1,846 nucleotides of DNA, from the NCBI RefSeq assembly GCF_003334255.1, contig NZ_QOWU01000145.1, one strand, 5' to 3'. Below are positions 1 through 1,846 of this stretch, in pieces. Both the position numbers and the translations under genes were made by a program. The notes beneath the pieces were generated by a model. The model had not been told where the DNA came from. It saw only the letters and a program-made list of their open reading frames with translations, and searched no databases. The stretch comes from Escherichia coli (GTDB taxonomy: Bacteria > Pseudomonadota > Gammaproteobacteria > Enterobacterales > Enterobacteriaceae). Within the stretch, counting starts at the first letter, position 1. Every line of letters begins with the position of its first letter.

Positions 1-22
1 AGCTGATAGAAACAGAAGCCAC
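1..22 (-). CDS. insA: insA (IS1 transposition regulator) N-terminal fragment, 7 codons from a GTG start, truncated by window edge
   Basis: Minus strand from 22 reads GTG GCT TCT GTT TCT ATC AGC T, i.e. (M/V)ASVSIS, matching the known InsA N-terminus MASVSISCPSC. Preceded by GAGG. Only 22 nt are visible. Confidence 0.6.
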
Positions 23-42
23 TGGAGCACCTCAAAAACACC

Positions 43-48
43 ATCATA
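43..48 (-). promoter_or_regulatory. -10-like hexamer TATGAT in the IS1 insA promoter region, directing transcription leftward out of the window
   Basis: TATGAT on the minus strand lies 20 nt upstream of the insA GTG, with GAGG as a Shine-Dalgarno 7 nt before the GTG. The insA promoter is known to lie in the IS1 left end; the exact hexamer assignment is my inference. Confidence 0.5.
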
Positions 49-54
49 CACTAA

Positions 55-77
55 ATCAGTAAGTTGGCAGCATCACC
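55..77 (-). repeat. IS1 terminal inverted repeat IRL (about 23 bp), terminus at position 77 facing glcA
   Basis: Minus strand 77..55 reads GGTGATGCTGCCAACTTACTGAT, the known IS1 IRL. Exact extent of the IR is from established descriptions of IS1. Confidence 0.85.
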
Positions 78-1752
78 CTGGACCCAAATGTATATGCCGA
101 TGGGAGGACTGGGGCTATCCGCTCTGGTCGCCCTGATCCCGATAATATTCTTCTTCGTTGCACTCGCGGTATTACGTCTGAAAGGACATGTCGCTGGAGC
201 AATAACCCTTATATTATCTATCCTGATTGCAATATTCGCCTTTAAAATGCCGATTGATATGGCATTTGCTGCTGCGGGCTATGGCTTTATTTATGGATTA
301 TGGCCAATAGCGTGGATTATTGTCGCGGCGGTGTTCCTGTATAAATTAACCGTTGCCAGCGGGCAGTTCGATATTATCCGCAGCTCGGTTATCTCCATCA
401 CCGACGATCAGCGTTTGCAGGTGTTACTGATTGGTTTCTCCTTTGGTGCGTTGCTGGAAGGAGCGGCTGGCTTTGGTGCGCCGGTGGCGATTACCGGTGC
501 GCTGCTGGTGGGCCTGGGCTTCAAACCGTTATACGCGGCGGGGCTGTGTCTGATTGCCAATACTGCGCCGGTGGCGTTTGGTGCGTTGGGCGTGCCGATT
601 CTGGTCGCCGGTCAGGTAACGGGAATCGATCCGTTCCACATTGGCGCAATGGCGGGACGTCAGTTACCGTTCCTGTCGGTTCTTGTGCCGTTCTGGCTGG
701 TAGCAATGATGGACGGCTGGAAAGGGGTGAAAGAGACGTGGCCAGCGGCGCTGGTTGCTGGGGGAAGCTTCGCTGTCACTCAGTTCTTTACCTCTAACTA
801 TATTGGTCCGGAACTGCCGGATATTACTTCGGCGCTGGTGAGTATCGTCTCACTCGCTTTATTCCTTAAAGTCTGGCGGCCGAAAAATACCGAAACGGCA
901 ATCAGCATGGGACAATCCGCAGGTGCGATGGTGGTAAATAAGCCATCTTCTGGCGGTCCCGTGCCTTCAGAATATAGTCTGGGGCAAATCATTCGAGCGT
1001 GGTCACCGTTTTTAATCTTAACGGTGCTGGTCACCATCTGGACCATGAAGCCGTTTAAAGCGTTATTTGCTCCGGGCGGCGCGTTTTATTCACTGGTGAT
1101 TAATTTCCAGATCCCTCATTTGCATCAACAAGTGTTGAAAGCGGCACCCATTGTCGCCCAACCAACGCCAATGGATGCGGTGTTTAAATTCGACCCCCTC
1201 TCGGCTGGCGGCACCGCTATTTTTATTGCGGCGATTATCTCTATCTTCATCCTCGGTGTGGGGATCAAGAAAGGTATTGGCGTCTTTGCCGAAACGCTAA
1301 TTAGCTTGAAGTGGCCGATACTGTCGATTGGCATGGTGCTGGCGTTCGCCTTCGTCACCAACTATTCTGGCATGTCCACCACGCTGGCGCTGGTACTGGC
1401 AGGTACAGGCGTGATGTTCCCGTTCTTCTCACCGTTTCTCGGCTGGCTGGGCGTATTCCTTACCGGCTCGGACACCTCCTCTAACGCCCTGTTTGGTTCA
1501 CTGCAATCGACCACGGCGCAGCAAATCAACGTCTCTGACACCCTGCTGGTGGCAGCAAACACCAGCGGCGGCGTAACTGGCAAGATGATCTCCCCGCAAT
1601 CTATCGCCGTGGCCTGCGCCGCGACGGGCATGGTGGGCCGAGAATCTGAACTGTTCCGCTACACCGTGAAGCACAGTCTGATTTTTGCCAGCGTTATCGG
1701 CATTATCACCCTGCTGCAGGCGTATGTGTTTACCGGGATGTTAGTCTCGTAA
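64..1752 (+). CDS. glcA: Glycolate / L-lactate / D-lactate permease GlcA (LctP family, TC 2.A.14); 5' end abuts IS1 terminus and native start codon is absent
   Basis: Single long ORF ending at TAA 1750..1752. From [40 protein letters not shown] onward the translation matches my recollection of E. coli GlcA (about 560 aa, native N-terminus MVTWTQMYMP; homolog LldP starts MNLWQQNYDP). It is highly hydrophobic with a central hydrophilic loop, as expected for LctP permeases. The 64 coordinate is the ORF-track TTG, which lies inside IS1 sequence. The first in-frame ATGs are at 88, 94 and 100 (native Met7, Met9, Met11), so the true initiation site is uncertain. Confidence 0.93.
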
Positions 1753-1769
1753 ATCAATAAAGCCGGATG

Positions 1770-1792
1770 GGTGATGCTGCCAACTTACTGAT
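1770..1792 (+). repeat. IS1 terminal inverted repeat IRL (about 23 bp), terminus at 1770 facing glcA
   Basis: GGTGATGCTGCCAACTTACTGAT at 1770..1792. Confidence 0.85.
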
Positions 1793-1798
1793 TTAGTG

Positions 1799-1804
1799 TA
1801 TGAT
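1799..1804 (+). promoter_or_regulatory. -10-like hexamer TATGAT in the IS1 insA promoter region, directing transcription rightward out of the window
   Basis: TATGAT at 1799..1804, GAGG Shine-Dalgarno at 1814..1817, insA GTG at 1825. The spacing fits a promoter, leader and start arrangement. Hexamer assignment is inference. Confidence 0.5.
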
Positions 1805-1824
1805 GGTGTTTTTGAGGTGCTCCA

Positions 1825-1846
1825 GTGGCTTCTGTTTCTATCAGCT
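1825..1846 (+). CDS. insA: insA (IS1 transposition regulator) N-terminal fragment, 7 codons from a GTG start, truncated by window edge
   Basis: GTG GCT TCT GTT TCT ATC AGC T at 1825..1846 encodes (M/V)ASVSIS, matching the InsA N-terminus, and is preceded by GAGG. Confidence 0.6.

Follow-up and report, generated by a model that had tools for sequence, protein, structure and literature searches.

The window, by which we mean the whole stretch of 1,846 bases of Escherichia coli DNA that was analysed, carries a copy of the permease gene glcA whose start has been replaced by a terminus of the insertion sequence IS1. It consists of three parts, with a glcA segment (positions 78..1769) lying between two IS1 ends (Table 1). 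The beheaded gene had been recognised in an earlier note on this DNA, and comparison with reference sequences confirms every coordinate that was claimed for it. We judge it probable, at about 0.8, that glcA is silenced here both transcriptionally and translationally. In the proposed mechanism, the left IS1 cuts glcA off from its ATG, from the ribosome-binding region and from the upstream promoter of the glc operon; the transposase promoter of this IS1 copy faces away from glcA, and its outward -35 element finds no -10 partner. The gene would thereby be left as a silent pseudogene, the result of an ordinary IS1 knockout specific to this strain.

The two IS1 ends, 1..77 and 1770..1846, form a perfect inverted repeat with 100% identity. 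A repeat finder gives arms of 78 nt, the 78th pair (c78/g1769) being due to chance. When compared with the curated 768-bp IS1A of K-12 (NC_000913.3, 19796-20563), each arm agrees at 77 of 77 positions with the beginning of the element, counted from the first base of its IRL terminus (GGTGATGCTGCC), whereas just 36 of 77 positions are identical to the IRR end. The IS1 terminal inverted repeat, GGTGATGCTGCCAACTTACTGAT..., is present at the element boundary in both arms. The two copies are mutually inverted, with their IRL ends facing inward and their bodies pointing out of the window, and both are probably full-length, this status of the whole element being read from the 77 nt that are visible of each copy.

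Table 1. Positions of features in the window, numbered from its first base.
Feature	Position	Strand	Basis or remark
IS1 IRL end, left copy	1..77	-	77/77 identical to IS1A; body to the left of the window; abuts glcA codon 3
IS1 inward promoter-like site	43..70	-	CTGCCA, 16 nt, TATGAT; directed into IS1, away from glcA
Outward -35-like TTGGCA in the IS1 inverted repeat	64..69	+	5/6 match to TTGACA
Predicted target-site duplication of left IS1	78..86	+	CTGGACCCA; holds if simple insertion; derived from terminus at 77
glcA, codon 4 (Trp) to stop	79..1752	+	557 of 560 codons; without native start, ribosome-binding site and promoter
In-frame ATGs (native Met7, Met9 and Met11)	88, 94, 100	+	Candidate alternative starts, unsupported
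Left-arm remnant of native hairpin, 10 nt	1760..1769	+	Fold comparison of native and window sequences
Predicted target duplication of right IS1	1761..1769	+	AGCCGGATG
IS1 IRL end, right copy	1770..1846	+	77/77 identical to IS1A; body to the right of the window

Insertion of IS1 makes a 9-bp duplication of its target, and the duplications predicted for the two copies are included in Table 1. In K-12, the curated IS1A is not flanked by a 9-bp direct duplication (GTAATTGCT compared with TACCTCAAT; L022:188-196 and 965-973), and to judge from these flanks not every resident IS1 retains its duplication. Because the K-12 copy has none, the expectation of a duplication rests on the literature. A 48-aa open reading frame with a TTG start on the minus strand (56-202), which crosses IS1 and runs antisense into glcA, has no support as a gene.

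The glcA segment is an exact copy of the chromosomal sequence (L001:2502-4193 in strain PSS-12, and also exact in K-12 MG1655, b2975). Its 1,692 bp take in glcA without its first 8 bases, together with 17 nt of 3' flank; the segment thus opens with the final base of codon 3 and ends 17 nt beyond the stop. Identification of the gene as a permease holds at the level of the domain, with PF02652 (Lactate_perm) on record for the identical GlcA protein. At the left junction the window reads ...GTTGGCAGCATCACC to position 77, followed by C (78), TGG (79-81), ACC, CAA and ATG (88-90); written in another form, ...GCATCACC is joined to C TGG ACC CAA ATG. The native locus reads caatATGGTTACCTGGACCCAAATG, that is, caat ATG GTT ACC TGG ACC CAA ATG, encoding MVTWTQM.

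Alignment with the reference locus bears out the placing of the Trp codon at 79..81 and of IS1 sequence at 70..75, where the native ATG and Val codons were expected. Positions 70..77 as a whole are IS1, in place of the native ATGGTTAC, and the native ATG, ribosome-binding site and promoter are indeed missing from the window. The IS1 terminus at 77 falls within codon 3 (76..78), and it is there that the identity with IS1A ends. Base 77 (C) fits IS1 and the native sequence alike, however, and the reference alignment that had been proposed for placing the breakpoint locates it at 76/77 or 77/78. The upstream frame is closed by TAA at 52..54, and the sole canonical in-frame start (ATG, GTG or TTG) inside IS1 is TTG64, as had been noted. 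The three ATGs of glcA listed in Table 1 are also present and in frame as described; all of them precede the first hydrophobic, presumed membrane-spanning stretch, which follows G12. A search by sequence for a PDB homologue that could inform on the N-terminal topology of GlcA found none.

That native GlcA starts with MVTW, as the earlier note has it, agrees with the length of 560 aa in RefSeq (WP_000259302.1) and in K-12 (NP_417449.1), and with the conservation of the N-terminus. Matches found by tblastn in Azospirillum, Klebsiella, Acinetobacter, Deinococcus, Ralstonia and Paraburkholderia begin at GlcA residue 1 or 4. When the N-termini of five annotated LctP-family proteins are aligned with those of the native and the window sequence, Q6, Y8, P10 and G12 do not vary, and six of the seven have W4. 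Homology reaches upstream of Met7, from which we conclude that the coding sequence does so too, and that the true start is the ATG of MVTW. At least 1000 contigs, whole chromosomes among them, carry the annotation of a 554-aa GlcA starting at Met7 (window position 88; MYMPMGG). A reference start at or downstream of 88, which the earlier note regarded as contradicting its reading, thus formally exists, yet the N-termini of the homologues lead us to judge it wrong; they indicate that the 554-aa annotations are systematic start-codon miscalls.

Shine-Dalgarno strength was considered as a discriminator between starts and dropped, with the native and the alternative starts both close to -3 kcal/mol and so at background. 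Pairing with the anti-Shine-Dalgarno sequence gives -2.9 kcal/mol for the native ATG and -3.0 kcal/mol for ATG88, ATG94 and ATG100, against a mean of -2.75 kcal/mol for the background of the window. For TTG64 it is only -0.2 kcal/mol. The earlier statement that none of these starts has a convincing Shine-Dalgarno sequence therefore stands for TTG64, but as an argument against the three ATGs it falls away, the native start being equally weak.

A promoter scan of positions 1..300 on both strands picked out a single sigma-70-like site, the inward one within IS1, which we take to be P_IRL for insA; on the plus strand the same scan found no promoter. The outward TTGGCA element is poorly placed for a partner. 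At spacers of 16-18 nt the candidate -10 hexamers are AAATGT, AATGTA and ATGTAT, each with 2/6 matches, while the sole 4/6 hexamer, TATATG, requires a spacer of 21 nt and is missing the final T (T6). The outward -35 element of IS1 activates neighbouring genes only where a suitably spaced -10 box is present (PMC8764528; PMC9330008). On sequence evidence, these results show the absence of a consensus outward promoter. A hybrid promoter formed with IS1 and driving glcA was considered and rejected on account of the spacing, the quality of the -10 hexamers and the lack of a match in the plus-strand scan.

The reading frame is open from 64 to 1752, and a start at TTG64 would give a protein of 562 aa beginning MAASPWTQ.... 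An exact look-up of this product in a collection of 15 billion proteins found it absent, and the 552- and 550-aa forms of GlcA that were looked up in the same way belong to other truncated or contig-edge copies, none of them with IS1. TTG64 overlaps the -35 box, so that it would be present on a messenger only if transcription starts further upstream and passes antisense through IS1.

The alternatives to a silenced gene turn on these same features. It could be supposed that glcA is still expressed, from TTG64 or from Met7, Met9 or Met11, by read-through or from a weak hybrid promoter, and yields a working permease whose N-terminus is slightly changed. The frame is open, IS1 carries an outward -35 box, and the N-terminal extensions of homologues vary in length; the frame still encodes every conserved N-terminal residue from W4 on, and the first hydrophobic stretch begins after residue 13, so that any product that was translated could work. 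Because the native Shine-Dalgarno sequence is as weak as those of the alternatives, weak translation from TTG64 or from Met7, Met9 or Met11 may, on sequence grounds, take place. We nevertheless consider an expressed permease unlikely, given -10 hexamers that are poor at functional spacing and better only at 21 nt, an empty plus strand in the promoter scan, a TTG64 that hardly pairs with the anti-Shine-Dalgarno sequence and lies across the -35 box, and the polarity for which IS1 is classically known. Very improbable, in our estimation, is the bolder idea that the IS1 end acts as a portable translation start and that the inverted IS1 pair makes a mobile, expressed glcA cassette; if true, TTG64 would rebuild a complete N-terminus, with MAASPWTQ... 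replacing MVTWTQ..., for a captured transporter gene. A third possibility would have Met7 as the native start, leaving the coding sequence complete and IS1 in the 5' untranslated region. Many GenBank records do carry the 554-aa form and ATG1 and ATG88 are equal in their pairing, but we find this scarcely credible when distant genera align upstream of Met7, Q6 is invariant and W4 nearly so, and the RefSeq and curated K-12 records both have 560 aa; even with a Met7 start, IS1 would lie 10 nt before it and the leader and promoter would be removed. Silencing of glcA thus remains our preferred reading. The outcomes listed in the earlier note (a silent gene, inefficient translation from a downstream Met, or a gene left intact if the IS1 copy is a simple insertion) are rightly named as possibilities, except that in the last case the gene would be interrupted, not intact.

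The other side of the segment is also altered. The right IS1 starts 17 nt past the glcA TAA (1750..1752), at a point where the native locus has a terminator-like hairpin, AAGCCGGATGAT-cgttaat-ATCATCCGGCTT, with a 12-bp stem and a predicted energy of -18.7 kcal/mol (z = -6.3). The corresponding sequence in the window folds at -7.1 kcal/mol (z = +0.48), which is no better than shuffled sequence. By this comparison of predicted folds, the terminator hairpin of glcA is destroyed by the right IS1. An Rfam scan of the window found no family.

Neither junction was found contiguous in 5,426 complete E. coli genomes when megablast was run with junction-spanning queries, which gave only two-piece joins. 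No match among PLSDB plasmids covered more than 69% of the left-junction query, the GTDB representative genomes gave 0 matches to the exact junction 40- and 42-mers, and the JGI metagenomes gave 0 matches to the left-junction 40-mer. To judge from these searches, the glcA allele with IS1 in codon 3 is most likely strain-specific. Two of the three E. coli matches to glcA in PLSDB are chromosome-sized records of 4.8-4.9 Mb and in the third, of 354 kb, glcA stands right at the beginning of the record; none has the junction. Genuine plasmids thus appear not to carry glcA, and we see no sign of an IS1-glcA-IS1 unit in circulation.

The pair of IS1 copies could have arisen by two independent insertions at a distance of 1.7 kb, or by a single insertion with a subsequent local intramolecular replicative transposition, producing an inversion. 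Intramolecular replicative transposition of IS1, with adjacent inversion or deletion, is documented according to a passage in PMC9330008 that cites Turlan and Chandler (1995). As in the product of such an inversion, the segment here lies between inverted IS1 copies that have the same end inward, and its junction sequences are the same as those left by two independent insertions. By our own derivation all four junction sequences are the same for both routes, with an IRL end turned towards the segment on either side, so that the window cannot separate the two; whichever route was taken, the consequence for glcA is the same. The far-side junctions predicted at the native locus are GAGACTGAACAATATGGTTACCTGGACCCA joined to GGTAATGACTCC... 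and ...GGAGTCATTACC joined to AGCCGGATGATCGTTAATATC, or in another form GAGACTGAACAATATGGTTACCTGGACCCA joined to GGTAATGACTCCAACTTATTG and CAATAAGTTGGAGTCATTACC joined to AGCCGGATGATCGTTAATATCATCC.

The arms of exactly 77 nt correspond to a standard assembler k-mer, and the window most likely represents an entire contig, or assembly-graph edge, from short reads. For a de Bruijn edge with k = 77 that lies beside a collapsed repeat, the missing 5' end of glcA would be outside the window, and its deletion is not implied. The same length could prompt the suspicion that the structure is an assembly artefact, for example a chimeric edge of the graph or a variant from a minority subpopulation, the edge stopping where a repeat is collapsed. 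For a unique segment with repeat copies on either side, however, an assembler normally and correctly gives an edge that stops in the first k bases of the repeat, and both breakpoints fall exactly at the terminal base of IS1, like real transposition junctions; we give an artefact almost no weight. Inverted IS1 ends that bracket a short 1.7-kb segment also recall a composite transposon with inverted arms, an architecture shared by known IS1 composites, and in that event the truncated glcA between its IS1 copies would have moved or be mobile, with the window lying off the native glc locus. This we regard as quite unlikely, since the gene carried has lost its start and offers no evident selective advantage, genuine plasmids lack glcA, none of the three E. 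coli PLSDB matches has the junction, and the junctions occur nowhere else in the collections searched, leaving no sign of spread.

Among known systems, the arrangement resembles the classical polar inactivation of genes by IS1 that is known from E. coli and Shigella: the interrupted gene is directly preceded by a complete IS1 terminus (GGTGATGCTGCC...), and the coding sequence is parted from its start and promoter. The event type is textbook IS1 insertional inactivation; the codon-3 allele itself is absent from the databases searched, and only the near ends of IS1 are visible here. Tn1681, the heat-stable enterotoxin transposon with inverted IS1 arms, likewise has two inverted IS1 copies around approximately 1.7 kb with one gene, although only the ends are seen in our case. 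It differs in that what is carried here is a housekeeping permease gene, truncated but otherwise identical to its chromosomal counterpart, and in that the plasmid searches gave no sign of the unit having transposed or residing on a plasmid. IS1 hybrid (fusion) promoters, reportedly described by Prentki et al. in 1986, resemble the left junction in that an outward TTGGCA faces the downstream gene; they differ in that no -10 better than 2/6 stands at 16-18 nt here and in that the insertion is inside the coding sequence, not upstream of it. A further hybrid promoter of this kind is that of afaA in ST131 (PMC8764528).

According to a passage in PMC7419537 that cites Nunez et al. (2001, 2002), GlcA and LldP each transport glycolate, L-lactate and D-lactate. 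Since LldP has the same substrates, a mild phenotype is expected, and growth of this strain on glycolate or lactate should rest on LldP. The glcA of the strain should be annotated as an IS1-disrupted pseudogene and not as a permease of 550-554 aa, and the widespread Met7 annotation of GlcA is exposed as a start miscall. Short contigs with 77-nt inverted IS ends are to be read as assembly edges whose context needs long reads. Beyond annotation the importance is small, and the biology routine.

Several observations were made alongside. Three PLSDB "plasmids" of 4.8-5.4 Mb (NZ_CP141089.1, NZ_OL790696.1 and CP125156.1) are evidently chromosomes, and such chromosome-sized records supply most of the high-identity plasmid matches to glcA or lldP. 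In two other public contigs (L004:1-37 and L012:1-55) the first codons of glcA adjoin the end of a different mobile element; the joins correspond to window positions 93 and 100 and read ...GGGGTCAGTACA/TATGCCG and ...GGGTGCAGTACA/ATGGGAGG; their TGTACTG... termini resemble an IS3-family element, presumably IS150-like, and the L012 junction is not common in complete genomes. Many more contigs begin at 92-94 or 98-100, in part through ascertainment bias, as proteins starting at Met9 or Met11 were sought. The 5' end of glcA also carries a 1-bp deletion (ACCCAA to ACCAA) in the chromosome GCA_900449615.1 (L002:~2995-3000) and a change of TAT to TAA at codon 8 in a metagenome contig (L003:~2995-3003). 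These two lesions are independent, lie within native codons 5-8, and are accompanied by recorded gene calls that start at Met9.

IS1 is found near the other end of the gene as well. In strain PSS-12 (NZ_AP027697.1), an IS1B lies 213 nt downstream of glcA (L001:4389-5152), with gspC immediately after it; in K-12 the gene next after glcA is yghJ, a difference in gene order that suggests an IS1-associated deletion. An IS1 end lies within a few hundred bases of the 3' end of glcA, at varying distances, in 36 complete genomes, from which it appears that this neighbourhood is often struck by IS1.
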